Below, one piece after another: positions 12,413 through 59,195 of a stretch of DNA of 64,000 nucleotides. Numbering within the stretch: the first letter of the stretch is position 1; the number at the start of each line of letters is the position of its first letter. The notes below the pieces were generated by a model. It was not told the DNA's origin, did not search any database, and saw only the letters and a list, made by a program, of their open reading frames with translations. Origin of the DNA: a bacterium (GTDB taxonomy: Bacteria > Bacillota > Clostridia > Oscillospirales > Oscillospiraceae); NCBI GenBank assembly GCA_963613665.1, contig CAVEAL010000008.1, positions 14,943-78,942 of the forward strand. The letters run 5' to 3'. The translations under genes and the position numbers were made by a program.

Positions 12413-12419
12413 TGCTGCA

Positions 12420-24989: not shown

Positions 24990-25023
24990 CAAAACAGCGT
25001 CAGGATATTAAGATAGCTGTGCA

Positions 25024-25132
25024 AAAGGGGTGCTGAGTTTTTCTCGGCTGAGACGGAAAGAATCGAATTTCCGAGACCCTCGAACCTGATCCGGGTAATG
25101 CCGGCGTAGGAAACGAAAATTCATATCAAATC
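25024..25132 (+). promoter_or_regulatory. TPP (THI-box) riboswitch
   Basis: aggggtgctgag...ggctgagac...accctcgaacctgatccgggtaatgccggcgtaggaa matches the THI-box consensus. Confidence 0.9.
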
Positions 25133-38566: not shown

Positions 38567-40108
38567 ATGCAGAATCAGCGTGTACTTGTTCTGGACTTCG
38601 GCGGTCAGTATAATCAGCTCATCGCCCGCAGAGTCCGCGAATGCAATGTCTACTGCGAGGTAAAGCCCCACAGCATGAGCATTGACGAGATAAAGTCATA
38701 CGATCCCATCGGCATCATCTTCACCGGCGGCCCGCAGAGCGTTTACGCTGCCGGCTCACCGCAGGTAGACCCGGAGATATTCAGGCTCGGCATCCCCGTG
38801 CTGGGCATCTGCTACGGCTGCCAGCTCATGGCTCACTACCTCGGCGGCGAGGTGACCGCCGCACAGTCAGATACCGCACGCGAGTACGGCAAAACTCCGA
38901 CATTCTTCGACACAGGCTGCCGCCTGTTCAAGGGCCTGCCGGAGGAGAGCGTCACATGGATGAGCCACGGCGACTACATGGCCAAGGTACCGGAGAGCTT
39001 CCGCCTTGTCGCACACAGTGCCGCCTGTCCGACCGTCGGCATCTGTGACGAAGCGCGCGGCTTTTACGGCGTGCAGTTCCACCCAGAGGTGAACCACACC
39101 GAATACGGTCAGAAAATGCTGCACAACTTCCTGTATGAGATATGCGGTGCAAAGGGCGACTGGACGATGGGCGACTATATGCGCGCGTCGATCGAATCCA
39201 TCCGCGCCAAGGTCGGCGACGGGAAGGTGCTGCTCGCACTTTCCGGCGGCGTCGATTCTTCCGTCGCTGCGGCCCTGCTCGCTGAGGCGGTAGGCAGCCA
39301 GCTCACCTGCATTTTCGTCGATCACGGCCTCATGCGCAAGGATGAGGGAGACGAGGTCGAGGCCGCGTTCAAAAACTGGGATATAAATTTCATCCGCGTG
39401 AATGCGCAGGAGCGCTTTCTCGGCCGCCTCGCGGGCGTTTCCGAGCCCGAGGCAAAGCGCAAGATAATAGGCGAGGAGTTCATCCGCGTTTTTGAGGATG
39501 AGGGCAAGAAAATAGGCTCTGTCGATTACCTCGCACAGGGCACGATCTACCCCGATGTCATCGAGTCCGGGACGAATGTCGCGGCGGTGATAAAGAGCCA
39601 TCACAACGTCGGCGGTCTGCCCGACTTTGTCGATTTCAAGGAGATCATCGAGCCGCTGCGCCTGCTGTTCAAGGACGAGGTGCGCGCTCTCGGCCGCGAG
39701 CTTGGCCTGCCCGAGTATCTTGTTATGCGTCAGCCCTTCCCGGGCCCCGGCCTTGCCATCCGCGTCATCGGCGATATCACGAAGGAGAAACTCGATATCC
39801 TGCGCGAGGCTGACTTCATCTTCCGTGACGAGATCGCAAAGGCGCATCTTGAGAGCACGATGAACCAGTATTTTGCGGTGCTTACGAGCATGCGTTCGGT
39901 CGGCGTGATGGGCGACGGCAGGACCTATGACTACACCCTCGCTCTGCGCTCCGTGACCACGACCGACTTCATGACCGCCGACTGGGCGCGTATCCCCTAT
40001 GACGTGCTCGACAAAGTCTCCGTGCGCATCGTAAACGAGGTCAAGGGCATAAACCGCATCGTCTATGATATAACCTCCAAACCCCCCGCAACTATAGAGT
40101 GGGAATGA
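38567..40108 (+). CDS. guaA: glutamine-hydrolysing GMP synthase
   Basis: GATase ([12 protein letters not shown]), ATP-PPase SGGVDSSV, and the conserved C-terminal ...PPATIEWE. Confidence 0.95.
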
Positions 40109-40329
40109 GAAAAAGGTGAACATGAGGGGCTGCAAAGCCTTGAAAACACGCACTTTTTGAAAATCTCATTTCCCGTTTGATAGCAAAATGATAGCAGATA
40201 CCCAAACTGTTTTGTTTATTCTTGTTTCAAGGGACAAGCGGTTTGCAGGTTGAGCTATTACCAATCCTATATTGAGAGCGAAAAAGGCTCTGCTGACTTT
40301 CTGTAAAAGAAAGCCGGCAGAGCCTTTTG

Positions 40330-40999: not shown

Positions 41000-41395
41000 A
41001 CTTCAAGCTAAGCTAATATGTTTAGAATCCGCTGTTGGGGTAACAGCTTAATCCCGAGCAGCGGACAGACCCTTTGAAACACGAATAGCTCCTCCGAATA
41101 ACGACCTCTCTGTATATGGGTAACACCTGAGCCGCAAGGAAGCGCGTAAGCGCCGCACCAAAATACCGGATAGTTCCCGGTCAGGCCACGACAGCAGAGA
41201 GCGGATACTCCCCACCAGCTACAGTCCGAGCGTGATAGCAACCGTCGCAGGCAATAGGGTGAGAGGCTTCGTAAGTCAATCGGAGATTGAAAAATGAGCG
41301 CCGGGTAACTACCAGCGGTTCGGAGGAGCAGAAAAACCTTACGAAGAAGTGCGGGGGTAGTCTGTACTTCTTCGTAAAACCAAAAATGAAGAAAG
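41000..41395 (+). ncRNA. ORF-free, GC-rich, hairpin-dense region (candidate structured RNA or attP-arm/regulatory DNA)
   Basis: No credible ORF. GNRA-capped hairpins gcgcGTAAgcgc (41142-41153) and ccGCAAgg (41132-41139). Perfect 12-bp stem ttacgaagaagt/acttcttcgtaa (41339-41377). Strand is uncertain. Confidence 0.3.
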
Positions 41396-42680: not shown

Positions 42681-43016
42681 ATGTCACTGAAAAACCGAGA
42701 CAATCACAACCGCTGGCGCAATAAGACCGTTGCTTTCCGGGTCTCCCCGGAGGAAGACGCACAAATTGAAACCTTTGTCAAGCTCTCCGGGCTGACCAAA
42801 CAGGACTATATCACCCGCCGCCTGACTTGCAGGGATGTGGTGGTACAGGGCAATCCGAGGGTCTATAAGGCGCTACGCGACCAGCTTGCCGCCGTGCTGG
42901 ACGAACTGCGGCGCATGGAGGCAGGCAGCAACGTGAACGATGAGCTGCTGGACGTGATTGAAATGATTGCAGCCATCATGGACGGCATGAAGGAGGAAAA
43001 TGCCTGTGGAGAATGA
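42681..43016 (+). CDS. MobC-like ribbon-helix-helix relaxosome accessory protein
   Basis: KTVAFRVSPEEDAQIETFVKLSGLTKQDYITRRL is the typical RHH pattern of mobilisation accessory proteins. Confidence 0.55.
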   Translation: MSLKNRDNHNRWRNKTVAFRVSPEEDAQIETFVKLSGLTKQDYITRRLTCRDVVVQGNPRVYKALRDQLAAVLDELRRMEAGSNVNDELLDVIEMIAAIMDGMKEENACGE

Positions 43017-44178
43017 AATTTGCAAAAAGAAAACGACCGCCCCGGACACATCTGTTGGCGCAGATGATGGGCAGCCGCTTCACAATTCAACTGAGAACAG
43101 TATATCCGCTTTTGATGAAAAAATCAACGGTGATTTTCAAAACAGTGAGGAAAGTCTGGACGAAATCTACCGCAGGATGCAGAGGTTGACCGACCCGCAT
43201 TACCTGCGCACGATCTCCATGACCGAGCTGTACCAGACCGCGTATCAGAGCAGGCCGCCGATCATCGACGGCTTGCTCTACGCGGGCGCGTATATCCTGG
43301 CAGGTGCGCCGAAGATCGGTAAGTCGTTTCTGGTGGCGCAGATCGCCTATCATGTCAGCACGGGCGAAGCTCTGTGGGGTTACGAAGTCCATCCCGGTAC
43401 GGTGTTGTACCTTGCCTTGGAGGATGATTTTCAGCGTATCCAGAGCCGAATGTTTATGATGTACGGCGTCAACGACACCGACCGGTTGCACTTTGCAACC
43501 GCTGCGGGCAAGATTGAAAACGGGTTAGACGAACAGCTTGAGAATTTCGTGCGGGAGCATCCTGACACCAGACTCATTATCATCGACACCATGCAGAAAA
43601 TCCGGGAAGTCGGCGGCGAGGCATACAGCTATGCCAGCGATTATGAGATCATCGGTCGGCTCAAGCAGTTTGCCGACAAACACTGTATCTGCGTCTTAAC
43701 CGTCCATCACACACGCAAGCAGCCTTCCGGTGACAGCTTTGAGATGATCTCTGGAACAACGGGACTGCTCGGCTGCGCGGACGGTTCGCTGCTTATGCAG
43801 AAGAAAAAGCGCACGGCGCTGGAGGCAACCATCGACGTGGTGGGACGTGACCAGCAGGATCAGATTCTCTATCTAAAAAAGGATGTCGACACACAAATCT
43901 GGAATCTTGAAAAGGTGGAGAACGAGCTGCACAAAGAGCCGCCCGATCATGTTCTGGAATCCGTTTCAAGGCTGGTATCCGCAGATCAACCGGTATGGAC
44001 AGGCTCCCCCTCCAAGCTTGCCGATGCCGTCCATGTCGGCATGGCGGCTAATGCGCTGAGCAAGTATCTGAATGTGAAGTCTGGCAGACTTCTGGCCGAA
44101 TACCACGTCCGCTATGAGAACAAAGTCCGGCACGAAGGGCGGCGTATCACACTGACCTTCGTAACCGCAAACGAATAA
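43000..44178 (+). CDS. RecA-fold AAA_25/RepA-like ATPase (replication/primase-associated helicase-like)
   Basis: ILAGAPKIGKSFLVAQIA Walker A, LYLALEDD, LIIIDTMQKI Walker B, LTVHHTRK. Confidence 0.7.
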   Translation: MPVENEICKKKTTAPDTSVGADDGQPLHNSTENSISAFDEKINGDFQNSEESLDEIYRRMQRLTDPHYLRTISMTELYQTAYQSRPPIIDGLLYAGAYILAGAPKIGKSFLVAQIAYHVSTGEALWGYEVHPGTVLYLALEDDFQRIQSRMFMMYGVNDTDRLHFATAAGKIENGLDEQLENFVREHPDTRLIIIDTMQKIREVGGEAYSYASDYEIIGRLKQFADKHCICVLTVHHTRKQPSGDSFEMISGTTGLLGCADGSLLMQKKKRTALEATIDVVGRDQQDQILYLKKDVDTQIWNLEKVENELHKEPPDHVLESVSRLVSADQPVWTGSPSKLADAVHVGMAANALSKYLNVKSGRLLAEYHVRYENKVRHEGRRITLTFVTANE

Positions 44179-44891: not shown

Positions 44892-46154
44892 ATGGCAAGA
44901 GGCGACGGTATTCACCGTACCAGCGCAAGAAACGCAAAAATGAAAGACACAGACATCGACAACGCGCAGGCGCACAACGAGCGCGAAAAATCGTCGTATG
45001 TCAATCAGGACATTGTTCCTGAACGGACAAAATACAATGTCCACTTCAAAACACCAACCGCCGGGTACATGGAGATGTTTGAACAGATGCGCTCTGACGG
45101 CGTGATCTCAACACGCGGTCTGAAAGCGGATGCCGAGAAATTCGGAGAGCTGATCTTCGACGTCAACTCCGCGTACTTCTTCAACCACGGCGGCTATAAG
45201 TTTGCAAAACAATTTTACACCGATGCGTACAAAGCTGCAATCAAAATTGTCGGTGGAGAACAGTACATCCTTTCGGCGGTCATGCACGCCGATGAGCGCA
45301 ACCGTGCCATGTCCGACGCGCTGGGGCAGGACGTGTATCACTATCACCTTCATGTGGTCTATATCCCAGTCGTGGAGAAGCAAATTCTGTGGTCTAAACG
45401 CTGTAAGGATGAATCGCTTCGCGGCACGGTCAAGGAAACGATTCAACAGGTCAGCATGAGCAAGAAGTGGATTTCCAAGCCCGCGCTGGACGAAAACGGC
45501 GAGCCGATCTTGAGTACAAAGGGCAAGCCTGTTCTCAAAAAATCCTACAGCGTTTTGCAGGATGACTTCTTCCAGTATATGCGCGACGCCGGGTACGACG
45601 ATGTAGAGCGCGGCGAACGCGGCAGCTCCGAAGAACATCTGACGGTCACGCAGTTCAAGGTGCAGCAGGAACAGGCGCGGCTGGCAGAACTCACGGAGCA
45701 GAATCACCAGCAGGAGCAGCAGGCAGTGGCGCTCGGTAAGCAGATCGAGAAAATCCAGAATCAGCAGGTTGATGTGGCAGCCATTGAAAAGATTGAAGCG
45801 AAGTCCATTCCCTTCTCTACCAAGGTTATATTGGAGCGTTCTGAATACGAATCGCTGGCAACGGCAGCGAAGAAGTACGCTGCGTCAGAGAAAAAGGAAT
45901 CCAAGTTGCAAAGGGCTCTGGATGCAGCGAACAGGCTGATTGCAAAGCTGAAAGCAGAAATTGCCAGTTTAAAGCAGGAGCTTTCCGAGTACAAATCCGT
46001 TCGCAGCAAGCTCCGCACGTCGGATCTGGAATGTGAAAACGCAGAGCTTCGCAGAAAAGTTCAACACTATGAGGACGTGATCCAGCGCAATAACCTCTGG
46101 CATTTCTTTCGTCCGCGCAGAGAAAAAGCAGTGATGCGGGACAATGCCCGCTGA
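44892..46154 (+). CDS. mob: MobV-family relaxase (Mob_Pre/plasmid recombination enzyme)
   Basis: AHNEREK, VMHADERN and HYHLHVVYIPV (HxDE / HxH metal motifs), plus a long coiled-coil C-terminus. Confidence 0.8.
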   Translation: MARGDGIHRTSARNAKMKDTDIDNAQAHNEREKSSYVNQDIVPERTKYNVHFKTPTAGYMEMFEQMRSDGVISTRGLKADAEKFGELIFDVNSAYFFNHGGYKFAKQFYTDAYKAAIKIVGGEQYILSAVMHADERNRAMSDALGQDVYHYHLHVVYIPVVEKQILWSKRCKDESLRGTVKETIQQVSMSKKWISKPALDENGEPILSTKGKPVLKKSYSVLQDDFFQYMRDAGYDDVERGERGSSEEHLTVTQFKVQQEQARLAELTEQNHQQEQQAVALGKQIEKIQNQQVDVAAIEKIEAKSIPFSTKVILERSEYESLATAAKKYAASEKKESKLQRALDAANRLIAKLKAEIASLKQELSEYKSVRSKLRTSDLECENAELRRKVQHYEDVIQRNNLWHFFRPRREKAVMRDNAR

Positions 46155-46617: not shown

Positions 46618-46620
46618 GGA

Positions 46621-46667
46621 AAAAGCCGCCCGCAGGAGTTTGAATGCTCCTGCGGGCGGCTTTTTCT
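46621..46667 (+). terminator. intrinsic terminator closing the backbone module
   Basis: agccgcccgcaggag-N8-ctcctgcgggcggct + ttttt. Confidence 0.85.
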
Positions 46668-46699: not shown

Positions 46700-46728
46700 T
46701 TGACCGATTTCGCTTAAACGAATATAAT
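46700..46728 (+). promoter_or_regulatory. promoter of the defence cassette
   Basis: TTGACC-17-TATAAT. Shares cttaaacgaat with the sequence next to TTGACT at 40970-40990. Confidence 0.55.
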
Positions 46729-46764
46729 AAAAATGGTGTAGTATAGCACATATGCAGATATGAG

Positions 46765-46965
46765 GTGCAGTCTTTGAACGGATACATCACAGCTCAGGAA
46801 GCTGCTAAAAAATGGGGCGCAACATCGCGCCAAGTGCAAATTTTGTGCAAAGAAAACCGTGTCCCCGGCGCTTCACGGATGAGTCGCATTTGGATTATTC
46901 CCGAAGATGCCGAAAAGCCTACTAACGATAAGAGAAAGGTTGGAAGCACAAATGACCAATATTGA
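46765..46965 (+). CDS. small HTH DNA-binding protein (possible controller of the R-M genes)
   Basis: GTG start. YITAQEAAKKWGATSRQVQILCKENRVPGA is an HTH_17/MerR-like motif. Overlaps the start of the restriction enzyme gene by 14 nt. Confidence 0.55.
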   Translation: MQSLNGYITAQEAAKKWGATSRQVQILCKENRVPGASRMSRIWIIPEDAEKPTNDKRKVGSTNDQY

Positions 46966-49948
46966 AAAGCTCAGTGATCTTGCTAATCGTTTCCAAGCGA
47001 ATCTGGCTTACTACAAAGATGCTAAAAACAATTATAATGAACACTCTTGCCGGATTGAGTATATTGATCCACTTTTGAAAATTCTCGGCTGGGATGTAGC
47101 GAATGAAAAAGGGCTTGCCCCGCAATATAGAGAGGTAATTGCCGAAAACTATTCAACTCCTACGGATCGTCCAGATTATACGATGACATTAAGAGGCGTG
47201 GCTAAGTTTTTTGTTGAAGCAAAGAAGCCCGCAGCTGATATTACAAGAGTAACCGCTCCTGCTTTTCAAACAAGAAAATATGGTTGGAATGCCAATCATA
47301 GAATTGCCGTTCTAACGAACTTTGAATATTTGGCGGTATATGACACTTGCTATATTCCAAAAGAGGAAGATGGGTGCGCTGTAGCTCGCTATCGAATTTT
47401 TCATTTTACCGAATATGTAAGCAGATATGATGAGATTATAGCCCTCATTTCCAGAGATGTTGTTTATTCTGGTGAATTTGACAAATATTTAGATGATAAT
47501 TTCCCTGCGAGCGGCGGTGAGAAGCAGCAGGTCGATACGCTGTTTTTAAAACAAATCAACGAATGGAGAGTATCTCTGAGCAACGAACTTTATAGACAAG
47601 GTGGACGGTATCAGTCCCTTGAGGTTCTTAATGATGTTGTTCAGGAGTTTATCAACCAGATTGTGTTCCTTCGTATTTGCGAGGATAAGAATCTTCCGTT
47701 GTACCATAAACTCCAAGATACAGTTTCTGCTCCAGATCAGCTTCAAGCAAAGCTGGAAGAACTGTTCCGTTCTGCGGATCACCGTTACAACTCTGGCATG
47801 TTTTCCGGAGAAGATATTGTCTTTGATCTGTCCAGCACAGTAATCTCTGAAATGATAAAAGGGCTCTATTATCCGCAGAGCCCCTATTTGTTTAATATTA
47901 TCGAGCCAAATCTTCTTGGAAAGATTTACGAAATGTTTCTTACCGAGCAGTTAGTTATTTTACCTGACAGTACAATTGGGCTCGGCAAGAAAAAGGACTG
48001 TGTTAACAGATCAGTAGTCACGACGCCAACTGAAATCGTTAAATATATGGTTGAGAAGACGCTAAGCAGGGCGTGTGATGGAAAAACTCCAGCAGAGATT
48101 TTGAATATCCATATTGCAGATATTGCATGTGGATCGGGAATTTTTCTCGAAGAAGCATTCTCATATCTACAAGACTATTGTGTTCAGCAGTATCTCCTCG
48201 CTGGTGAGCAGGAACACCTGATTGAAATAGGAAATGGCTTATACAAACTACCGCTCGATGAAAAGAAACGAATTCTTTGTTCTTGTATTTATGGCATTGA
48301 TATTGATATTCATGCTGTAGAAGTGGCAAAATTCTCGCTTTTAATTAAGCTAATAGAAAATGAGACTGCCCCTTCTGTTGCAGATGAAACGCCTATATTG
48401 CCTGATCTAAGCCATAATATTCTTTTCGGAAATTCGCTCGTCAGTTCCGAAGAACTTTTAGGCATACAGGTATCAGATACAGAAATGATTGATTTGGCTC
48501 CGTTTGACTGGAACTCGATCAATAACGGCAGTCCTTTTAGTGTAATCATCGGGAATCCGCCCTATGTTAATACAGAAGGGATGCATGCTTTATTGCCTCC
48601 CCCGGAAGTTGAAATATACAAGAAGAAGTATAAGACTTCTCATAAGCAATTTGACAAGTATTTCATCTTCATTGAGCAAGCTGTGCGAAAGACTGAGAAG
48701 AATGGCTATATTTGTTATATTGTTCCAAATAAGTTCTTCAAAATTGGAGCCGGTGAAAAGCTGAGAACTCTGATTTCGAGGGAGCAAATGCTTGTAAGCC
48801 TCGACGATTTTGGCGATGCTCAGCTTTTTGAAGACAAAACAATCTATAGCTCAATTCTACTTCTTCAAAAAGCAAAGCAAAATACGTTCGTTTATTCAAG
48901 CATAGATTCAGCAAATAGGCTCTGGGGCGGAGAAGAAGTAAGCAGAATTGAATTGAGCTCATTTATTCTGAATAAGCTCCCGTGGCGGTTGACAACAGAT
49001 ATGGACTTCTTAGAGATGCTCCAGCGGTTAGATCAAGTTTCGGTTCCGCTCACAAAACATGCTGAAATCTTTAATGGTATTCAGACAAGCGCTGAGCGTC
49101 CTACCCCGATATATTGGTTTTCCTCGGATGACATCGTTGCTGAATATCAGGATACAGTTGAAATTCGCAGAGATGGTCACAATTACACGATTGAGAAGGC
49201 TTTGCTGCGTCAATATTTTAAGCCCACACGCCAAGATGAACGCGGTTTGAACTCTTACAGTATTTTACAGACGGATAAGAGAATAATCTTTCCTTATGAT
49301 GCTGCTGGGCATCTTATTCCAATCGATGAGATGAAGTCATCTTATCCTGGAACATATGCTTATCTTGAGGCACATTATGACCGATTAGTTCCGAAGAGTG
49401 TGTCCCAATTCGGTGTTCGTGATGTTCCCAATGCAACGGCAGATACGTGGTATCAATACGGAAGAACTCAAGCGCTAACTGCGTTCATTAACACGCCGAA
49501 ATTGATTGTTGGTGTATTAAGCAAGGATCCCATGTATGTTCTTGATAAGGACGATATCTTAATCGCTTCCGGTGGCACTGCAGGATACTGCGCTGTCAGT
49601 AAAAAGGCCGATAGCCCCTATGCGCTAGAGTATATTCAGGCGTGGCTGTCTAATCCAATTACTGAAAGAATTCTTGAGATTGTTGGCAGCGATTTTGAAG
49701 GCGGATTCATTGCACGAGGGACATTCGTACTTTCAACGCTCCCGTTTGTCGAACTTGATTTTGAAGATGCCGTGCAAAAGGGAATTTATGATCGCGTTGT
49801 TGAAGCTAGCAGAGAGATTTATGATATAAACGCTACTTTATCGAGCCAGCCGGCAAAGCGTATTTCAACATTGCTCCAAACCAGAAAAAGCGCATTGATT
49901 AAAGAAATTGAAGACCTGATAGAAAAAGTATATCATTTGGATTTTTAG
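46952..49948 (+). CDS. type IIG (Eco57I-like) bifunctional restriction endonuclease / N6-adenine methyltransferase
   Basis: N-terminal PD-(D/E)xK (RPDYTM...FFVEAKK). AdoMet motif DIACGSGIFLEEAF. Catalytic IIGNPPYV. About 998 aa from MTNIEKL. Confidence 0.85.
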   Translation: MTNIEKLSDLANRFQANLAYYKDAKNNYNEHSCRIEYIDPLLKILGWDVANEKGLAPQYREVIAENYSTPTDRPDYTMTLRGVAKFFVEAKKPAADITRVTAPAFQTRKYGWNANHRIAVLTNFEYLAVYDTCYIPKEEDGCAVARYRIFHFTEYVSRYDEIIALISRDVVYSGEFDKYLDDNFPASGGEKQQVDTLFLKQINEWRVSLSNELYRQGGRYQSLEVLNDVVQEFINQIVFLRICEDKNLPLYHKLQDTVSAPDQLQAKLEELFRSADHRYNSGMFSGEDIVFDLSSTVISEMIKGLYYPQSPYLFNIIEPNLLGKIYEMFLTEQLVILPDSTIGLGKKKDCVNRSVVTTPTEIVKYMVEKTLSRACDGKTPAEILNIHIADIACGSGIFLEEAFSYLQDYCVQQYLLAGEQEHLIEIGNGLYKLPLDEKKRILCSCIYGIDIDIHAVEVAKFSLLIKLIENETAPSVADETPILPDLSHNILFGNSLVSSEELLGIQVSDTEMIDLAPFDWNSINNGSPFSVIIGNPPYVNTEGMHALLPPPEVEIYKKKYKTSHKQFDKYFIFIEQAVRKTEKNGYICYIVPNKFFKIGAGEKLRTLISREQMLVSLDDFGDAQLFEDKTIYSSILLLQKAKQNTFVYSSIDSANRLWGGEEVSRIELSSFILNKLPWRLTTDMDFLEMLQRLDQVSVPLTKHAEIFNGIQTSAERPTPIYWFSSDDIVAEYQDTVEIRRDGHNYTIEKALLRQYFKPTRQDERGLNSYSILQTDKRIIFPYDAAGHLIPIDEMKSSYPGTYAYLEAHYDRLVPKSVSQFGVRDVPNATADTWYQYGRTQALTAFINTPKLIVGVLSKDPMYVLDKDDILIASGGTAGYCAVSKKADSPYALEYIQAWLSNPITERILEIVGSDFEGGFIARGTFVLSTLPFVELDFEDAVQKGIYDRVVEASREIYDINATLSSQPAKRISTLLQTRKSALIKEIEDLIEKVYHLDF

Positions 49949-49960
49949 TGAGGTATTCCC

Positions 49961-51589
49961 ATGAAGCTCAAGAAGGACAGTTCCGAACAGAAGTTACGAG
50001 GGGCATATTACACACCATTACAGCTTGCAAACGCTATGGTGGAGCTATGCATCTCTCAAAATATCCATACCATTCTTGAGCCGAGCTGTGGTGACGGTGT
50101 TTTCCTTGATAGTCTTAAGCAGCTATCGCTTATTGAGAAAATGAACTCTGTTGATGCAGTTGAAATTGAGTCAGATGAAGCAAGAAAAGTACAAAACAAT
50201 TACCTCGATTATCAAAATGTTCATGTTCTAAACGAGGATTTTTTTGAGTTCTACTCTCGGATGGTTAGTACCCAAAAGCAGTATGATCTGATTTTGGGGA
50301 ATCCTCCTTATATCCGCTATCAATATCTTACTGAAACACAAAGAGAACTTCAATCCAATATTCTTACCTCGCATGGGATGAAAGCGAACAAACTTATCAA
50401 TGCGTGGGTAGCTTTCTTGGTAGCCTGTGTTCAGTTGTTGTCTGAAAATGGAAGAATCGCATTTGTTATTCCAGCCGAAATTTTACAGGTAGCATATGCC
50501 GAAGATTTGCGTCTGTTCCTTTCTGAACATCTTGCAAAAATCACATTAATCACGTTTGAGCAACTCGTATTTCCCGATATTGAACAAGAAGTCGTAATTT
50601 TTATTGGAGAAAAAGGCTCAGTGGAAAAAGGTATTCGCATTATTGAGATGAATGACCTCTCTGACATTGAAAAACTCGATCTTCAGCAGAACGGATTTCA
50701 AAAGATGCAGCACGTGAAAGAAAAGTGGACACGATATTTCACAACTGCCAAAGAGATGGAACTGATTCAATCGATTCGTACAGATAAGAGATTTGCGAAA
50801 TTCGCCGATTATGGACTTATAAATATAGGTATTACTACCGGGAATAATGGTTATTTTTCTATTTCTGAAAAGACCTGTGATGAATATGATTTAGGAAATG
50901 TAACGCTTCCACTTATCGGAAGAAGTTCGCATGCTCATGGAATCTTCTTTACAAATGAAGATTGGGAAAAGAACAAGGCATCAGGTAAAAGGGCCAGACT
51001 AGTAAACTTTCCTGATACACCAATAGAAAACTATCCAGAGCGGCATAAAGCGTACATCGCATCGGGTGAAGAGGCTGGTGAAAATAAAGGCTATAAATGC
51101 TCAATCAGGGATCGCTGGTATATCGTTCCCTCCATATGGATTCCGGATGCTTTTTTCCTCCGCAGAAACAACTTATATCCCAAATTTGTCCTGAATCGCT
51201 GCAATGCTGTATCTACAGATACAATGCATCGGATGAAGTTCAATCCTAACGTGCAACCGGAAAATATTTTACTTTCGTACTATAATAGTATTTCTTTTGC
51301 TTTTACAGAAATATGTGGCCGGAGCTATGGCGGTGGAGTCTTAGAAATACTGCCCAGCGAAATGGGAAACATCATGTTGCCACAGATTGATAAGATTGAT
51401 CCACAGCGACGCGAGTTCTTGCTGTCGCAAATTGATGCCATTGTTCGAAAAAGTGAAGACATTGAATTAGCACTGGATATTGTGGATAAGGAAATATTAA
51501 TCAATATGCTCGGTATAGATCCGGAATGGTGTGCTTCTTTCCGCAAAATATGGAAAAAGTTGAGAAGAAGGAGGCTCGCCAGAGGGTAA
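49961..51589 (+). CDS. stand-alone N6-adenine DNA methyltransferase (M.Eco57I-like)
   Basis: GAYYTP, ILEPSCGDGVFL (motif I), ILGNPPYIRYQ (motif IV). 542 aa. Confidence 0.85.
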   Translation: MKLKKDSSEQKLRGAYYTPLQLANAMVELCISQNIHTILEPSCGDGVFLDSLKQLSLIEKMNSVDAVEIESDEARKVQNNYLDYQNVHVLNEDFFEFYSRMVSTQKQYDLILGNPPYIRYQYLTETQRELQSNILTSHGMKANKLINAWVAFLVACVQLLSENGRIAFVIPAEILQVAYAEDLRLFLSEHLAKITLITFEQLVFPDIEQEVVIFIGEKGSVEKGIRIIEMNDLSDIEKLDLQQNGFQKMQHVKEKWTRYFTTAKEMELIQSIRTDKRFAKFADYGLINIGITTGNNGYFSISEKTCDEYDLGNVTLPLIGRSSHAHGIFFTNEDWEKNKASGKRARLVNFPDTPIENYPERHKAYIASGEEAGENKGYKCSIRDRWYIVPSIWIPDAFFLRRNNLYPKFVLNRCNAVSTDTMHRMKFNPNVQPENILLSYYNSISFAFTEICGRSYGGGVLEILPSEMGNIMLPQIDKIDPQRREFLLSQIDAIVRKSEDIELALDIVDKEILINMLGIDPEWCASFRKIWKKLRRRRLARG

Positions 51590-51628
51590 GCATATATAGC
51601 GGTTTTATGTTATTTTAGAGGTGAGCAA

Positions 51629-52828
51629 ATGGGAAGTCGCGGACGTGATGCTGTCAGTACAATTAAGGGTTACTACTATCAGTTTGATCACTATATCCTT
51701 CAACTTCTTAGTCTTCAAAATGATAGTGACTCAGTGCGAATTGAAGGAATTGAAGATGTTGATATAATTTTGAAAGATACAATAAATGCTGTACAGTGTA
51801 AGTACTACGACGAAACATCATGTTCCCCCTCCGTAATAGGCAAAGCCGTTCGTCCTATGTTAAGACACTTTGCTGAAAATAAAGGCTACATGTATAAATA
51901 TAGTTTATACGGACACTACAAATCGGGTCAGGATTCAATTGTGCTGCCTTTAACAGTTGAATATGTCAAGGGAAAATTTCTTACTTATACTGAGCAAGGC
52001 ATTAAGCATAAACTTCATGTTGAGCTGAACTTAAACGACGCGGATCTAGAGACCTTTATAAGCCGTTTGGAGCTACAATTGTGTTCAGACTCATACGAAG
52101 GACAAATTGAAAGAATAATTTGTTGCTTGCAAAGCGAAATCCACTGCTCTGAGTATGATGCTCGGTATTTCTTTTACAATAACGCTGTTTCTTTTGTAAA
52201 GAGTATCGTTGTCAATAAAACCCCATCGGCAAGAACAATTACTAAGAAGCGCTTTATTGAGGCAATAAGTAAAAAGAAGCCGTTATTCGACAAATGGTAT
52301 ATTGAGTTTGTTGGCTTTGAAAAATACTACAAAGATGCAAGGAAAGAATTCTTCACTCAAACAAACATTTCGCCTAAGCATCGTTTCTTTCTTCTTGATT
52401 GCGACACAAATATAAATGATTCTGATTTATCTGCCATCATAATAAAGATTAGCGAAAAATGGAGCAAATTATCTCAACGAGAAAAAAGCCCATATTGCCC
52501 ATATATCTATCTTCATGGGATAACATCTGCACGCCTAGCAAGCGTAAAAAGAATACTACTTGAAAACGAGTTTCATATTTGGGATGGATATGAATTTAAA
52601 GATGCAGATTTTTCTCCAATCTCATTGGCTCGAGGGATAAATTATCATATTGGAATCAGAGCAAAAATTGTAAACAAGATTGACCAAATAAACCTCACTT
52701 TTAATGAGTGTCATGGGCAAAAGGAAATATTTCAGTTTTACTTAAATACTCGGTTTTATAATCGTACATCGGCGTTAGGAAAAGATATTCAAATTCAAAA
52801 TACTATTGATGTACTGAAAATAGTATGA
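51629..52828 (+). CDS. DUF4297/Cap4-like nuclease-domain protein (effector candidate)
   Basis: N-terminus TIKGYYYQFDHYILQLL...RIEGIEDVDIIL...AVQCKYY is a GYxYQ + E..ED + QxK PD-(D/E)xK-like signature. The remaining 300 aa or so have no recognisable motifs. Confidence 0.6.
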   Translation: MGSRGRDAVSTIKGYYYQFDHYILQLLSLQNDSDSVRIEGIEDVDIILKDTINAVQCKYYDETSCSPSVIGKAVRPMLRHFAENKGYMYKYSLYGHYKSGQDSIVLPLTVEYVKGKFLTYTEQGIKHKLHVELNLNDADLETFISRLELQLCSDSYEGQIERIICCLQSEIHCSEYDARYFFYNNAVSFVKSIVVNKTPSARTITKKRFIEAISKKKPLFDKWYIEFVGFEKYYKDARKEFFTQTNISPKHRFFLLDCDTNINDSDLSAIIIKISEKWSKLSQREKSPYCPYIYLHGITSARLASVKRILLENEFHIWDGYEFKDADFSPISLARGINYHIGIRAKIVNKIDQINLTFNECHGQKEIFQFYLNTRFYNRTSALGKDIQIQNTIDVLKIV

Positions 52829-52842
52829 TAAGGAGTTAGTAT

Positions 52843-54486
52843 ATGGTTACCGACGAACATAAATTGAGCGCAGAAGTAATTGCTGTTTTTCCGGATAAGG
52901 TAAGAATATCAGTAGATAGTATTGAGGATTTTTCGATTGCGGAAAATCAGTTGCGGGTCGGATCATATTTACGCATAGCAGATAATGATAACTCCGTAGT
53001 AATTGCTGTCATTGAAAACTTTACAATAGAAGTGGGAACGACATCAACGGGCGACGCTAGCCGTAAATATATTCTTGAAGCAAATCCTCTAGGTATTATT
53101 CGTAACGGAAGATTTGAACGGGGCAGCGATACATTAGCAATTCCCCCTAAAAAAGTTGAGCCAGCGAAGATAGAAGAAATACAGCAAATTTTCGAAGAAG
53201 CTCTCCCTGCTCAGAAAAAGTTCAGTTTTGCAAAATTAGCATCAGATCATACTATTTGTGTACCTGTTGATGGAGATAAATTTTTCAACAAGCATATTGC
53301 TATTGTAGGTTCTACCGGATCTGGAAAATCCCACACGGTTGCAAAAATAATTCAGCAAGCAGCAAGTGGAAAGGCAGGAGGATATGTCGGAATGAATAAT
53401 TCTCATGTAGTCATTTTTGACATACATGCAGAGTATAAGGCCGCATTTCCAGATGCAAAGCATATTGACATCACAAATCTGCGACTTCCCTATTGGCTGC
53501 TGAATAGTGATGAATTGCAAGAGCTATTTATAGATACAGAAGCAAATGATCATAATCAGCGGAACCTATTCAAGGAGGCGGTAGTCAAAAGCAAAAAAGA
53601 ACATTTTAGAGGAGATGATGTAGCAAAAGAAAAAATACATTTTGACTCGCCATTGTTGTTTGAAATAAATGATATATTAGAATTGGCGCGGTATAAGAAC
53701 ACTACCGAGCGAGATGGGACTCGTCAAGGGCCTCTGGTTGGAAAGTTGAGTAATTTTATTAGCAGATTTGAAAATAAATTGGCAGACAAGCGACTTGACT
53801 TTTTACTTGGAGATGAATCACGTGACACCTCCTTCGAAGATGTGCTTAAGAGCCTGATTGGCTATGGAGAGAGTAAAACTAATATTACAATTATAGATTT
53901 AAGTGGTGTCCCATTTGATGTTCTTAGCATTACCGTCTCGCTTATTTCAAGAATTCTATTTGAATATGGGTACTACTATAAACGTTTGCGGATTGCAGAA
54001 AACAATAATGAAAACGAAGCAAATGATGTTCCTTTACTTTTGGTTTATGAAGAGGCACATAAATATGCACCAAATAATGATGCTGCAAAGTATAGAGCGT
54101 CAAGAGAATCTATTGAGCGCATTGCAAAAGAGGGCAGAAAGTATGGGATTACTTTGCTGTTGGCTAGTCAGCGCCCATCAGAGATTTCAGAGACAATTTT
54201 CTCTCAATGTAGCAACTTCTTGGCATTGAGACTCACTAATCCCTCCGATCAGAATTATGTCAAACGCTTATTGCCAGATACAATGGGTAACCTTGTAGAC
54301 AGAATGCCTTCCCTGCGTGCAGGAGAAAGTCTACTGATCGGAGATGCTGTCGTGTTACCATCCGTTGTCCAAATAGATATGTGCGATCCAACTCCTGCAT
54401 CTACTGATATTCCGTATTGGCAATTATGGCAAGAACCTTGGCATGATTTAGATTTTGAAGCTATAAAAAGAATGTGGAGAAATTAA
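52843..54486 (+). CDS. HerA/DUF87-type P-loop ATPase
   Basis: IAIVGSTGSGKSHTV Walker A, PLLLVYEEAHKYAP Walker B, LLLASQRPSEIS. N-terminal beta-barrel-like segment (VIAVFPDKVRISV...IAVIENF). Confidence 0.8.
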   Translation: MVTDEHKLSAEVIAVFPDKVRISVDSIEDFSIAENQLRVGSYLRIADNDNSVVIAVIENFTIEVGTTSTGDASRKYILEANPLGIIRNGRFERGSDTLAIPPKKVEPAKIEEIQQIFEEALPAQKKFSFAKLASDHTICVPVDGDKFFNKHIAIVGSTGSGKSHTVAKIIQQAASGKAGGYVGMNNSHVVIFDIHAEYKAAFPDAKHIDITNLRLPYWLLNSDELQELFIDTEANDHNQRNLFKEAVVKSKKEHFRGDDVAKEKIHFDSPLLFEINDILELARYKNTTERDGTRQGPLVGKLSNFISRFENKLADKRLDFLLGDESRDTSFEDVLKSLIGYGESKTNITIIDLSGVPFDVLSITVSLISRILFEYGYYYKRLRIAENNNENEANDVPLLLVYEEAHKYAPNNDAAKYRASRESIERIAKEGRKYGITLLLASQRPSEISETIFSQCSNFLALRLTNPSDQNYVKRLLPDTMGNLVDRMPSLRAGESLLIGDAVVLPSVVQIDMCDPTPASTDIPYWQLWQEPWHDLDFEAIKRMWRN

Positions 54487-54686: not shown

Positions 54687-54977
54687 GAAAGTCGGATACC
54701 CCGTAGGATTGGGATAATAGGTATCAAATTAAGCCAAATGGAATCAAACAGTCTATACAAAAAAGTTTAGACTGCGTTTCCACTTGGCGAGTGGGAATAA
54801 TAAACGAGAGCTTAAAAAGTCTGTTATATCAATGATTTCAGAGCCTCGGCTACCCGCTTTGATAACAAAATGATAACATCCTTTGAAGCACAATTATTCT
54901 TTACCCCGAGTGGCTTGCGGGTTATCAGAATATAAACAGTGTGGATTGAGACTGATGCAGCCGTATTATAAGACGAA

Positions 54978-55023: not shown

Positions 55024-57990
55024 TTACATGCTGTAGTCGGCGCGGCGGATCAGCTCGAGCTGGAGATCCTTGTTGAGCGTGGTGAAGTAGGCATTATAGC
55101 CGGAGATGCGCACCATCAGGTCGCGGTAGGAGTCGGGATCTGCCATTGCCGCGCGCATGGTGTCGCTGGAGACGACGTTGAACTGCATCTGCATTCCGCC
55201 GAGCGAAACATAGGCGCGGGCGTAGGAGGTCAGATGCTCGACGGTCTGCTCGTGACTGTCGTTCGGAGAAGGATTGACCTTGACGTTGAAGGCTATGTTG
55301 TTGTTCATGTTCAGCGGGTCGAGGCGGCTGACATCCTTTATGTTGTCCAGCAGACTCGGCGAGGCATTGGCCTCCGGAGTCAGACCGGGCGTGAAGGGAA
55401 GACCGGCGAGGCGGCCGGAGGGAAGCGCACCGGCAAGCGTGCCGAAGGCAACGTGGTTTGACATGCTCCACCAGCCGGTGGTGTAATGGCCGCCGCGGAA
55501 ATTCTTGTGCGACCAGAATATATCGCGGGTCGCCTTGGTGAGGCGGTTTGCCATCTCGACGGCCTCGTCACTGCCGCCGCCGAAGCGCGGGACCTCGGTG
55601 AGTATTCTGCTGCGCATGGTCTCGTACCCTTCAAAATTGTTCTTGACCGCTTCGAAAAGCTCCGCAAGCGTATACAGCTTTCTGTCATACACCAGCGTTT
55701 TTATGGCCATCAGAGAATCGACGACGTCGGCAAGACCGATGCAGGCCGTGCCGGAGGAATTATATTTTGCGCCGCCCTTGGTGCAGTCGAGCCCCTTGCT
55801 GATGCAGCCGTCTATCATCGCGCTCATAAGCGGCGTCGGACGCAGCACGGAGTGCGCTTCACCGAGGTAATTGTTGTATTCGCAGGTGAGCCCCGCCATG
55901 AATGACAGCTGCGTTATGTAGGCGTTGAAGAAATCGTCAAACTCCGCAAAGCTGTCCGCTTCGCCGGTCTTTGGGCCGAGATGCCAGCGCATCAGTGGGT
56001 GATAGCCGTTGAACATGGCCATTTCAAAGGGCGCGACCATGCTGAACATCATGCAGTTGGTGTGCCCAAGATGCTTACCGGAGATGGTCGGCTCGACGCA
56101 GCCGGTGGCTGACCAGTCGCGCAGATCGGCGGTCTCGTAATGGTGATCCGCAAGTGAGGCCATGACCGCAGTGTCGTTGTGGATAGACGGCGTGGAGGTT
56201 GTGTTCACGTTGACCTCGCACAGGCGGCGAAGGTAGGTCAGAGAGTTCTTTTCGCTGTTGTAGCGCGCGTTGACGTTGGGGTCGCGCATGCTGAGCATCT
56301 CTGTGACCTTCAGGAACACATAGGTCATGTCGTTTACAGCATCCTCGCCCTCGGGTGTGATGCCGCCGAGAGTTATCGCCTGATCAGAGGAGCTGCCGCC
56401 GAAGAGATAGTTGCCGATATCGGGTGTGAGAGGAACGTGATCCTGACAGTTTATATAGAAGCAGCCGATAAGCTCTATCGCATGGCGGATATAGGCCTCG
56501 CGCCTGGCCTTGCTTCTGCACTTTGCCATATCGGCCTCAAAATACGGCTGGAGCCACTGATCCATGCGGCCGAAGGAGAAGCCTGCGTTTGTGCTTTCCA
56601 TATGTACGGCGACCCAGTGGATCCATATGGCATTCACCGCCTCGTCGAGCGTGCGTGCCGGATATTCGGGAGAATGCTCAACCGCCGCGGCTATCGTCTC
56701 AAGCTCCGCTCTGCGCTCACGCTTGAGCTCGAGGCTCGCCTCGTATCTTGCCTGACGGGCGAGGTTGTGCGCGTAGGCGATAACGCCCTCGTAGCAGTCG
56801 ATCATGGCGTGCAGCTCGTCCTTTTTCGACTGCGGAGCATCCGCGTCGTGCTCAAGCTCGGCCTCGATCTCGGCGATGATGCCGCGCAGACCCAGTCTCA
56901 GAAGCTTGGGATAATCGAGTATCGTGTGCGACAGAGCGACGTTTTTCCACATGAAGGCCGCCGCCCAGCGCTCGTCGAGCTTCTGGCAGGTGGGCTCGTG
57001 GTATTTGTCGCGGACGTATTCGCGCATGTTGCGGTGGATCCAGAAGGGAAAGATATCGTTGTTGAGCCTGTGTATCTCCTCCTCGGAGAGCGGGGCGTAG
57101 GCGTTGAGCAGGCGATCCTGCACAGTCAGCAGCTCACCCCAGAAGATAAGGCCGATCGCGTCGGGGTATACGGGCACGCCGATCTCCTTTGCTGTCGTCG
57201 TTCCAGCGATGAGGTTGCCCTTTCTGATGATCGGGCGGCGGTTTTCCATGAGATAGCGGAACGCCTTGCCCTGACGCAGCTCGGGCACCCACGGGGTGCC
57301 GTCCTTGTGCATCTCAAAGCCGTTTTCGCGGAAGAAATCGGTGAGCAGTCCCGCGCGCTCGGTGCACACTGCGGGCGCGGCGGTGTGGTGGATATCCAGA
57401 TATTCCTTGAGACGGGGGAAGTCCTCAAGCGCGTAGGAGGTCAGATACGGATCGTCCTTGAGACAGTGAACGCCCGGATCGACGCTGCCGCAGGGCATGA
57501 ATTCCTTGCGCGGCCGCGGTCCTGCGGGAGCCTTCGCGTCGGACATGGTCTTGCCGAATTCCTCGCGCTCCTTTTTCTGAAGCTGCATCTGCTGTATCTG
57601 CTTATCCTTCATCATAACGGAAAGAAGAAGGTTAAAGAACTCAAGATAAGCCATGTTGCCGCTGCTGGACATTTTGTTTTTGAGCATGAGGTTGAGCACC
57701 TCGTTGGGAGGCAGGGTCGCAAGCTGCGCAAGAACGCCCGTGTCCTGAAGCACGAGCAGGGTGTTCACGCCGTCGATATCTCCGCGCACGCTGCCCCTGC
57801 CGTCGCAAAAGCGTATGCTCTGCTTAACGCTGCCGTCCTCGGTGGTGAGGCCGACGGCAAAGTTCATCCAGCCGTCCTTGGTCTTCAGATACGCCTGCTT
57901 TTCCTTGTCGTAGGTAAACAGCTTGGCCATGAATTGCAGCACGACATGTGCCAGGGAATTTGCGACCTTTCCGGTCAGTTTTTCGTTCAT
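55024..57990 (-). CDS. glycyl radical enzyme (PFL2/glycerol-dehydratase-like clade), substrate unknown, with N-terminal extension
   Basis: C-terminal glycyl radical motif MVRISGYNAYF, active-site TGCVEP, 988 aa. The first 130 aa or so are an extra domain. Confidence 0.9.
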   Translation of the reverse strand: MNEKLTGKVANSLAHVVLQFMAKLFTYDKEKQAYLKTKDGWMNFAVGLTTEDGSVKQSIRFCDGRGSVRGDIDGVNTLLVLQDTGVLAQLATLPPNEVLNLMLKNKMSSSGNMAYLEFFNLLLSVMMKDKQIQQMQLQKKEREEFGKTMSDAKAPAGPRPRKEFMPCGSVDPGVHCLKDDPYLTSYALEDFPRLKEYLDIHHTAAPAVCTERAGLLTDFFRENGFEMHKDGTPWVPELRQGKAFRYLMENRRPIIRKGNLIAGTTTAKEIGVPVYPDAIGLIFWGELLTVQDRLLNAYAPLSEEEIHRLNNDIFPFWIHRNMREYVRDKYHEPTCQKLDERWAAAFMWKNVALSHTILDYPKLLRLGLRGIIAEIEAELEHDADAPQSKKDELHAMIDCYEGVIAYAHNLARQARYEASLELKRERRAELETIAAAVEHSPEYPARTLDEAVNAIWIHWVAVHMESTNAGFSFGRMDQWLQPYFEADMAKCRSKARREAYIRHAIELIGCFYINCQDHVPLTPDIGNYLFGGSSSDQAITLGGITPEGEDAVNDMTYVFLKVTEMLSMRDPNVNARYNSEKNSLTYLRRLCEVNVNTTSTPSIHNDTAVMASLADHHYETADLRDWSATGCVEPTISGKHLGHTNCMMFSMVAPFEMAMFNGYHPLMRWHLGPKTGEADSFAEFDDFFNAYITQLSFMAGLTCEYNNYLGEAHSVLRPTPLMSAMIDGCISKGLDCTKGGAKYNSSGTACIGLADVVDSLMAIKTLVYDRKLYTLAELFEAVKNNFEGYETMRSRILTEVPRFGGGSDEAVEMANRLTKATRDIFWSHKNFRGGHYTTGWWSMSNHVAFGTLAGALPSGRLAGLPFTPGLTPEANASPSLLDNIKDVSRLDPLNMNNNIAFNVKVNPSPNDSHEQTVEHLTSYARAYVSLGGMQMQFNVVSSDTMRAAMADPDSYRDLMVRISGYNAYFTTLNKDLQLELIRRADYSM

Positions 57991-58003
57991 TTGTCCACTC
58001 TCC

Positions 58004-58915
58004 TTAGCAGTTTATATTTTTATCTGTAAAAATTTTCTTCGCTCTATCAAGCTGCTCACGCGACTGAAAGCTGCCGGCGTTCTTGAGCTCGTCGCAGAGG
58101 CGGAGCCCCAGCTTGTCGTTTTTCGGATACCAGGTGGGATTGTAGGGGAGAAGCTGCGCTTTTTCTATGCCGAGCTCCGAGAGAAACGCTGCTATATCTC
58201 GGAGATTTTCCTCGGTGTCCGTTATGCCCGGGATCAGCGGCGTGCGAGGCAGGAAGCTGTAGGAATATTTCTCCTTGTCCTGCCACATCCGGCGGATGTT
58301 CTCAAGAATGCGGTCGTTGTATATGCCGCAGTATTTTTTGTGCCTTTCCCGGTCGAGGATCTTAACGTCGCAGAAAATATCACTGACATACGGCAGAAGA
58401 TGCTTTTCGGCACGCTCATAGTCAAACTGCCCGCAGGTCTCGAGCAGCACTCTCACTCCGGCCTCATCGAGTCTCCGAGCAAGCTCACCGACCCACTCGG
58501 TGCACAGTGTCGCCTCGCCGCCGGAAAGTGTGACTCCGCCGCCGGACACATCGTAAAAGGGCTTGTCCGACATGAGCTTTTTAAAAAGCTCGTCGTGCGG
58601 CATCTGCTTTCCGACCCTCGTTATAGCCTTGGCGGGGCAGACCTGCGTGCACTCAAAGCAGAGCGTGCAGCGCTCCCTGTCCGCATAATAGGGATTGGCC
58701 AGAGCCAGTGCACCGGCCTTGCAGACCCTGCGGCAGCTTCCGCAGTTTATGCAGACGGAGGCATCAAATGACAGCTCGGCCTCTCTCAGCTTGCTTTCGG
58801 GATTGTGACACCACACGCAGCTGAGCGGGCAGCCCTTGAAAAATACAGCCGTGCGTATCCCCGGGCCGTCGTCAAGAGAATTGCCCTTTACATCAAGAAC
58901 CAGCGGAACGAGCAT
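58004..58915 (-). CDS. glycyl-radical enzyme activating protein (radical SAM with two ferredoxin-type clusters)
   Basis: CPLSCVWCHNPE (CxxxCxxC), CINCGSCRRVC, CTLCFECTQVCP. Start at MLVPLVLD after AGGAGG. Confidence 0.85.
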   Translation of the reverse strand: MLVPLVLDVKGNSLDDGPGIRTAVFFKGCPLSCVWCHNPESKLREAELSFDASVCINCGSCRRVCKAGALALANPYYADRERCTLCFECTQVCPAKAITRVGKQMPHDELFKKLMSDKPFYDVSGGGVTLSGGEATLCTEWVGELARRLDEAGVRVLLETCGQFDYERAEKHLLPYVSDIFCDVKILDRERHKKYCGIYNDRILENIRRMWQDKEKYSYSFLPRTPLIPGITDTEENLRDIAAFLSELGIEKAQLLPYNPTWYPKNDKLGLRLCDELKNAGSFQSREQLDRAKKIFTDKNINC

Positions 58916-59195
58916 AATGACCTCCTGATTATCATGCATGATGCATTTCCTGTTTTGCCATGCCTTTGAATAGCAAAATGCCGAGGTAGATAAGGTGCCT
59001 CGAACATTGAAATTCTTTTAACAAAGACTATTATAACAGAAAACGGCGCTTTGTAAAGTCTGCTGCGGATATTCATAACATCGCTTTAACGTTTTTAATT
59101 AATTTAAAGGGAGTCTGAGCGTGCTTGACAAACGCAGGCCGTGCGGTATATCATATATACACTGCCTGAAGTTACAACTCTAAGGAGATGCAGCC

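Follow-up and report, generated by a model that had tools for sequence, protein, structure and literature searches.

The DUF4297–HerA gene pair

In the present study, we analysed a 64,000-nucleotide stretch of contig CAVEAL010000008.1 (assembly GCA_963613665.1; Bacillota, Oscillospiraceae), here called the window, and within it two adjacent genes that encode a DUF4297-family nuclease (gene 1) and a HerA ATPase (gene 2). Judged by sequence comparison, this pair is an intact and typical copy of the known DUF4297–HerA anti-phage system, in which every testable defining feature is present. The two open reading frames (ORFs), taken from the ORF listing, and their ribosome-binding sites, read from the sequence, are arranged as follows:

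51618..51623, plus strand: Shine-Dalgarno motif GAGGTG of the DUF4297 gene, within the 39-nt spacer behind the methylase gene
51629..52828, plus strand: gene 1, DUF4297-family anti-phage nuclease gene, 399 aa, ATG start
52830..52835, plus strand: Shine-Dalgarno motif AAGGAG of the HerA gene, within the 14-nt spacer
52843..54486, plus strand: gene 2, anti-phage-associated HerA ATPase gene, 547 aa, ATG start

The initial annotation of this DNA had described two co-oriented, AT-rich genes lying 15 nt apart and 40 nt behind a restriction-modification (R-M) methylase gene. The orientation, the base composition and the methylase in front were borne out, and the distances were corrected to 14 nt between gene 1 and gene 2 and to 39 nt between the methylase stop and the start of gene 1. 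The GC content is 35.1% in gene 1 and 38.8% in gene 2, as compared with about 56% in the flanks. A chance origin of the ORF pair is excluded, because frames of 400-550 codons stand in DNA of 35-39% GC and reach family E-values of 1e-136 and 9e-267. Identical copies of the proteins were found on four public contigs, and their 90% cluster has 32 members. An Rfam scan gave no match in or near the two genes.

Gene 1 had been read from short motifs as a Cap4-like or DUF4297-type PD-(D/E)xK nuclease, and both full-length profile hidden Markov model matches and structural similarity agree with this assignment. Its top match in PADLOC was the DUF4297 profile PDLC02187 (E=1.3e-136, profile positions 3-403 of 404), and the NCBIfam equivalog NF042945 was matched with 445 bits (cutoff 300) over positions 1-400 of 400. 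Among the PDB sequences, residues 6-398 align with the E. coli DUF4297 chain 8xav_G (E=2.5e-81) at 38% identity, that is, 43% over residues 6-205 and 32% over residues 206-398. The quoted motifs were located at G14-Y-Y-Y-Q18, E39-G-I-E-D-V-D45 and V55-Q-C-K58; residues D43, Q56 and K58 are the aligned counterparts of D40, Q53 and K55 in the E. coli protein and are invariant across 54 homologues. The 120 homologues listed for gene 1 are each about 400 aa long, with a query coverage of 93-100%. No SAVED match (Pfam-A, E<=0.1) and no SIR2 match (Pfam-A and PADLOC) was found in gene 1.

The structure of gene 1 was predicted as a single chain by AlphaFold2 with the 54 homologues as input, which gave a predicted local distance difference test score (pLDDT) of 90.4 and a predicted template modelling (TM) score (pTM) of 0.83. 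When this model was searched with Foldseek, the first match was the E. coli DUF4297 crystal structure 8zgi_A (E=2e-32), followed by other DUF4297 complexes and then by the Cap4-type nucleases of Avs3 (8dgc), LmuA and HamA. A family profile of 15 sequences searched against all PDB sequences reached DUF4297 entries alone and not Cap4, and the Cap4 relationship is therefore one that appears through the fold. The protein divides into a Cap4-like PD-(D/E)xK nuclease domain (residues ~1-205) plus a C-terminal domain (CTD, residues ~206-399), for which a role in oligomerisation and HerA docking is suggested by the solved homologues. The initial annotation had found the remaining 300 aa or so of gene 1 unrecognisable; they are in fact the rest of the nuclease domain and the conserved CTD of the family, and the C-terminal half of the model fits the solved CTD chains 8xav_M and 8xaw_Q with a TM score of 0.92 and a root-mean-square deviation of 1.6-1.7 Å.

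Gene 2 was correctly recognised as a HerA/FtsK-like P-loop ATPase with an N-terminal barrel. Its top PADLOC match was the HerA profile PDLC02188 (E=9.1e-267), Pfam DUF87 was matched with E=1.6e-34, and the NCBIfam equivalog NF042944 was passed narrowly, with 855.6 bits for a cutoff of 850. Residues 6-546 align with residues 5-569 of the 571 residues of HerA 8xau_A (E=4e-206) at 55% identity. The protein is composed of an N-terminal HAS beta-barrel, a RecA-like core, a helix bundle whose insertion loop is short, and a C-terminal hook. The quoted motifs lie at residues 156-163 (Walker A, GSTGSGKS) and 401-406 (Walker B, VYEEAH), and K162/S163 (Walker A), E403/E404 (Walker B) and R432/K433 (arginine finger) correspond to K157/S158, E426/E427 and R455/K456 of E. 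coli HerA; these motifs are retained in 77-78 of 79 partner HerA proteins. The segment of the helix-bundle insertion (residues 260-320) has 61 aa and is the shortest of the 79 (median 75, maximum 114). The short insertion loop itself lies at residues ~285-295, in a region that is hypervariable throughout the family.

For comparison across genomes, gene 1 was used in a scan with one genome per species, in which 174 relatives were found and the best 80 loci were kept. These 80 loci span Bacillota, Bacteroidota, Pseudomonadota and further phyla. HerA homologues that share 48-80% identity with gene 2 lie directly downstream in 79/79 testable loci; the 80th locus was left out of this count, its contig stopping 3 nt past gene 1. 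The spacers between the two genes are mostly -4 to +18 nt, and a range of about -52 to +151 nt covers most loci; two seemingly wider gaps arise from start-codon or frameshift artefacts. This conserved pairing, together with the full-length profile matches and the fold, upholds the earlier DUF4297–HerA assignment. The further suggestion that the pair may be a divergent member of the family did not hold, as both proteins pass the NCBI equivalog cutoffs and share 38% (DUF4297) and 55% (HerA) identity with the solved E. coli prototype.

The best-known role of HerA is in archaeal double-strand-break repair, and the pair could be regarded as a NurA–HerA-like machine for DNA end resection and repair, or else as a decayed, non-functional remnant. 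We give this next to no credence. The window HerA matches the repair HerA models weakly, with 130 bits for NF040937 and 118 bits for NF040819, far under the respective cutoffs (800 and 970). By the Pfam, PADLOC, NCBIfam and PDB comparisons, gene 1 is not NurA; neither ORF is interrupted, all catalytic residues are present and identical copies occur in several samples, and the location in AT-rich mobile cargo beside an R-M system also speaks against this reading. With NurA–HerA (e.g. 4D2I) the window HerA shares the hexameric translocase of the HerA clade with its HAS barrel and RecA core (E=2.8e-27); it differs by the lack of NurA in the window and by an extra helix-bundle insertion and a C-terminal hook, which are typical of defence HerA. 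With the HerA profile of another anti-phage type, NF042943, the window protein reached 162 bits (cutoff 800).

The restriction-modification genes in front of the pair

The DUF4297 and HerA genes follow two R-M genes in the same orientation, and the four genes between 46.9 and 54.5 kb have a GC content of 35-41%. The features upstream of gene 1 are:

46700..46728, plus strand: sigma-70-like promoter candidate TTGACC-17-TATAAT (11/12), ahead of a helix-turn-helix (HTH) gene and the R-M genes
46907..49948, plus strand: Eco57I-like type IIG restriction-methylase fusion gene (Pfam Eco57I, E=2.8e-34, and HSDR_N; PADLOC REase_MTase_IIG, E=7e-262)
49961..51589, plus strand: M.Eco57I-like stand-alone N6-adenine methyltransferase gene, 542 aa (Pfam M_Eco57I_C, E=1.7e-32, and Eco57I, E=2e-15; PADLOC MTase_II, E=1.5e-180)

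The fusion gene was found upstream of the methylase gene in 45/45 testable homologous loci (>=60% identity), and the two genes have the features of an Eco57I-type R-M system. The ORF from the first ATG at 46907 encodes 1013 aa, and the public gene call (L001) 998 aa; since this call and the homologues suggest a product of 998 aa, translation probably starts at ~46952 rather than at 46907. A 66-aa HTH gene (HTH_59/HTH_17) at 46765-46965 overlaps the first-ATG start of the fusion gene, and may encode a C-protein-like controller of the R-M operon.

A strong bidirectional terminator at 46619-46666 stands just before the promoter candidate, and from 46728 to 54486 there is no terminator comparable to it. 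Promoter-like matches in the region are no more numerous than expected by chance, and 46700-46728 is thus named as a candidate only. Co-transcription of the five genes from HTH to HerA, starting at ~46.7 kb, is likely because a near-consensus promoter lies upstream and no comparable terminator comes before the end of HerA.

The initial annotation had also stressed the tight linkage of the pair to an Eco57I-like R-M. This linkage is real and recurrent: the order of R-M fusion, methylase, DUF4297 and HerA with spacers of 0-100 nt was found in 7/80 species loci (L010, L011, L046, L071, L074, L076 and L080). In the DUF4297 tree the seven are spread over at least four clades, each clade having sister loci without the linkage. 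The commonest upstream neighbour of DUF4297 is an M.Eco57I-type methylase (7/73), followed by AbiL/RloB (4). The linkage is not specific, as was seen in a reverse census of methylase homologues of >=60% identity, where a HerA-type pair lies downstream in only 9/43 testable cases. Elsewhere, the slot behind the R-M genes holds Shedu (6), GmrSD (5), pairs of HEPN and AAA_21 proteins (4), SIR2–HerA (2), Gabija-like genes (2), Hachiman (1) or ABC-3C, and these alternative fillers share the tight spacing and the co-orientation with the R-M pair (homologous loci within L085-L164). Comparison of these loci indicates that the R-M pair is an anchor with an exchangeable defence slot behind it, of which DUF4297–HerA is one of many fillers. 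Certain slot fillers match no family, and could be uncharacterised modules.

The nearest relatives of the R-M proteins of the window are in the L074 group (68% and 74% identity), and those of DUF4297 and HerA are in L010 (45% and 72%); because these nearest relatives differ, the R-M and DUF4297–HerA modules must have been reshuffled. In the related four-gene cassettes L071, L074, L076 and L080, the relationships of DUF4297 (taken from tree and identity matrix) and of HerA (taken from the identity matrix) conflict. The DUF4297 proteins of L071 and L074 are 93% identical, and the HerA of L071 is 95% identical to that of L080 and only 81% to that of L074. Such values suggest recombination even between the DUF4297 and HerA partner genes of this group.

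The same data bear on a reading in which the R-M fusion, methylase, DUF4297 and HerA form one integrated system, with restriction-made DNA ends loading or triggering the HerA–nuclease complex and with the pair dependent on the R-M. The recurrence of the four-gene order in 7/80 loci from at least four clades fits such a system, as does the leading place of the M.Eco57I-type methylase among the upstream neighbours; this R-M is nevertheless absent from about 90% of DUF4297–HerA loci, and Shedu, GmrSD, HEPN/AAA_21, Gabija-like, Hachiman and ABC-3C genes behind homologous methylases mark a variable cargo slot. The incongruent identities of R-M and DUF4297–HerA mean that the juxtaposition was re-made or retained through recombination, no terminator separates the methylase from gene 1, and the 100% identical block of four genes travels as one unit in a metagenome contig (L002, described below). 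Against a dependence on R-M, DUF4297 and HerA alone suffice for protection of E. coli, and the prototype complex cuts circular as well as linear double-stranded DNA (dsDNA) in vitro. When the literature was searched for DUF4297 in combination with Eco57I, no paper linking them was found. Overall, we consider such an integrated system very unlikely. A dedicated four-gene system was rejected as the main explanation, in view of the varied slot fillers and of the ~90% of DUF4297–HerA pairs that occur without R-M; some synergy of R-M and the pair is conceivable.

It is also quite unlikely, in our estimate, that R-M and DUF4297–HerA act as a co-transcribed two-layer unit in which restriction ends or stalled restriction serve as the signal or loading substrate, and in which the R-M would have been selected as the anchor for an exchangeable abortive-infection module.

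The mobilizable element and its surroundings

The DUF4297–HerA pair forms the end of the cargo carried by an integrative mobilizable element of ~14.7 kb, which has the 3' end of guaA as its insertion site. The location in a mobile element, as proposed earlier, is evident from an integrase, NikA, AAA_25 and a Mob_Pre relaxase (all by Pfam) and from the att repeats:

38567..40108: guaA, insertion target of the element
40097..40106, plus strand: attL core GAGTGGGAAT, overlapping the guaA stop codon
41528..42679, plus strand: tyrosine integrase gene with arm-binding domain
42681..43016, plus strand: NikA-like gene
43000..44178, plus strand: AAA_25 gene
44892..46154, plus strand: Mob_Pre relaxase gene
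54789..54798, plus strand: attR core GAGTGGGAAT, right edge of the element, 10-bp direct repeat of attL

The element provides a new stop codon (TGA) for guaA, and the original TAA is left at attR. In the listed gene order, an XRE-like gene on the minus strand stands between guaA and the integrase gene. The GC content is 35-41% in the cargo and 49-55% in the backbone, compared with ~56% in the host. No tRNA gene was found as integration target. From 47772 to exactly 54798, the metagenome contig L002 shares 99.5% identity with the window, and past 54798 the two are unrelated; because the identity ends at this position, the cargo is known from at least two different chromosomal settings. When plasmids were searched at the DNA level, there were only weak (64-70%) partial HerA matches and no near-identical copy.

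As cargo of an element with integrase and Mob_Pre relaxase, the pair might mainly serve the element itself, in addiction or exclusion, by destroying rival plasmids or elements or by killing cells that have lost the element. The 99.5% identical cargo in a second chromosomal context and the presence of HerA homologues on at least 23 plasmids are in keeping with this, and a nonspecific DUF4297 nuclease is toxic once active. The characterised homologues are all phage-specific abortive-infection systems that are non-toxic without infection, the pair has no antitoxin-like partner, and the genes next to it in 73 loci are those typical of defence islands. We hold such a role to be highly improbable as the main one; it overlaps with a role in defence and does not exclude it.

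Further observations were made at the ends of the element. About 90 nt outside attR (54799-54880) resemble the left end of the element (40107-40197), including the motif TTTGATA(A/G)CAAAATGATA(A/G)CA, and may be the remnant of an earlier related element, left by tandem accretion. TTGATARC repeats cluster at both ends of the element (40177, 40888, 54654, 54667, 54678 and 54859), and are candidate arm-type integrase sites. Upstream of an Xis-like ORF and the integrase gene, ~380 nt on the plus strand (41005-41385) are without an annotated gene. This segment has a predicted minimum free energy of -134.9 kcal/mol (z = -4.5), with none of 100 shuffled sequences folding as well, and has a perfect 17-bp hairpin at its end. 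It had no Rfam match, and nothing similar was found in the other loci fetched; from the folding prediction, it may be a structured leader or a non-coding RNA of the element.

The remaining features of the window belong to the chromosome. Directly to the right of the element, at 55024-58939 on the minus strand, lie genes for a PFL-like glycyl-radical enzyme (988 aa) and a radical-SAM activase (311 aa), which are followed on the plus strand by genes for a CsoR-like metal repressor and a P-type ATPase; all of these are ordinary chromosomal genes. Above the Rfam gathering thresholds, a T-box leader (12164-12413, minus strand, 113 bits) and a thiamine pyrophosphate (TPP) riboswitch (25015-25129, plus strand, 56 bits) were detected, which are ordinary features consistent with a Bacillota host.

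Mechanism, related systems and significance

The mechanism of the E. coli prototype has been described in detail (An et al. 2024, PMC11291478). It forms a complex of ~1 MDa, with 12 DUF4297 subunits on a HerA hexamer. The CTDs of DUF4297 build two rings, dock on the HAS barrels and mediate oligomerisation, and assembly converts HerA from an inactive split spiral to an active planar hexamer and dimerises the nuclease domains of the upper layer, which leads to nonspecific cleavage of dsDNA (PMC11291478). In HerA, S158 and E426/E427 hold ATP and R455/K456 sense ATP in trans, and an insertion shuts the DNA entry site and restrains the arginine finger (PMC11291478). A D40A/Q53A/K55A mutant of DUF4297 no longer gives defence, and neither does HerA K157A (PMC11291478). 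The DUF4297 and HerA genes alone protect E. coli by abortive infection, in which phage and host DNA are lost (PMC11291478), and a phage kinase can counteract the system (PMC11291478; review PMC12198126).

By analogy with this prototype, we propose that the window pair very probably works as a functional abortive-infection system of the E. coli type. Twelve of the 399-aa nucleases would stack as two layers through their CTDs on the HAS-barrel face of a HerA hexamer. This assembly would flatten the HerA ring and bring the arginine finger into place in trans, so that ATP hydrolysis is switched on. The Cap4-like nuclease domains of the upper layer would then dimerise and cleave dsDNA in a manner dependent on Mg2+ and without sequence specificity, with HerA threading the dsDNA through its central channel toward the nucleases. 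Upon infection, both phage and host DNA would be destroyed, and the cell would die without release of progeny. The pair would most likely be a second, abortive line of defence behind restriction, which protects both the host and the element. The stoichiometry, the activation by assembly, the nonspecific degradation of dsDNA and the abortive phenotype are presumed here from the literature on the homologues, and activity in this host is what we infer.

Several points weigh against this proposal. In Pfam-A, DUF87 was matched in gene 2, and PF14130 (DUF4297) was not matched in gene 1 (E<=0.1). PF14130 also misses 118/120 of the closest homologues of gene 1, and the miss is for that reason attributed to the model and not to gene 1. 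The CTD of gene 1 has only 32% identity to the E. coli protein, and gene 2 exceeds the NF042944 cutoff by only 5.6 bits. The insertion loop of the window HerA, the shortest of its family sample, falls in the region that is implicated by the prototype in autoinhibition. Furthermore, if the pair is constitutively transcribed with the R-M genes, the idea in the literature that the system is expressed only on infection would not apply here. On the other side stand the family membership, the intact catalytic residues, the fold, the obligate pairing and the mobile context, which are established by the observations given above.

The closest characterised relative is E. coli DUF4297–HerA (WP_016239654.1/WP_016239655.1; structures 8XAU, 8XAV-8XAY and 8ZGI; An et al. 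2024, PMC11291478), which has the same gene order and domain architecture. The likeness extends to the end-to-end alignment, the conserved D/Q/K residues, Walker A and B, the arginine finger and the predicted fold. The window HerA is 24 aa shorter than that of E. coli. The window pair stands, moreover, in a gut-type bacterium of ~56% GC, on a mobilizable element that targets guaA; it is probably transcribed together with an R-M pair, and is known here from its sequence. The complexes 9C1M/9C1N/9C5X (Rish et al. 2025) and 8ZIQ/8ZIR/8ZIT (Tang et al. 2025) are of the same system type. Their HerA proteins are matched with E=1.7e-130 and 4.4e-121, and their DUF4297 proteins with E=3.7e-20 and 1e-16 and a Foldseek probability of 1.0. 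These DUF4297 proteins are much remoter subtypes (~19-20% identity in structural alignment), and the window pair belongs to the subfamily of the prototype 8XAV.

SIR2–HerA (8WIV, 8J4U, 8SU9 and others) has a paralogous HerA (E=6.6e-48 and 1.5e-27), and the same 12:6 logic of architecture has been described for it (PMC12198126). It sits in the same slot behind a homologous R-M pair in L086 and L094. Its effector is a SIR2 NADase domain, in contrast to the PD-(D/E)xK nuclease of the window pair. The N-terminal fold of gene 1 is shared with Cap4-type domains, namely CBASS Cap4, Avs3 (8DGC), LmuA (9NXX/9HR5) and HamA (8ZUE), with Foldseek E-values of 6e-8 to 8e-5, and partial PADLOC matches were obtained to LmuA (E=4e-15) and HamA (E=4e-5). 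Dimerisation of nuclease domains as the step of activation has been described for both Avs3 and DUF4297 (PMC11291478). Unlike the Cap4-type systems, which have a SAVED, STAND or SMC partner or sensor, the window pair is without any of these, and the CTD of gene 1 is specific to DUF4297–HerA. The nuclease domain of gene 1 is thus Cap4-type in its working, and the protein is not a Cap4 effector.

The DUF4297–HerA type was already catalogued in 2021, has been experimentally validated, and was solved by cryo-electron microscopy in three laboratories (2024-2025). The window copy is an ordinary one of little value as a discovery, and standard annotation pipelines would name the pair automatically. 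As a compact variant from a gut-type Bacillota bacterium with the shortest HerA loop, it could help to dissect autoinhibition. That it is probably transcribed together with a constitutive R-M operon speaks for post-translational control, at least here, and not for infection-induced expression. In addition, the R-M pair with its exchangeable slot is a clear example of the modular assembly of defence islands on small mobilizable elements, and a place to seek uncharacterised modules.

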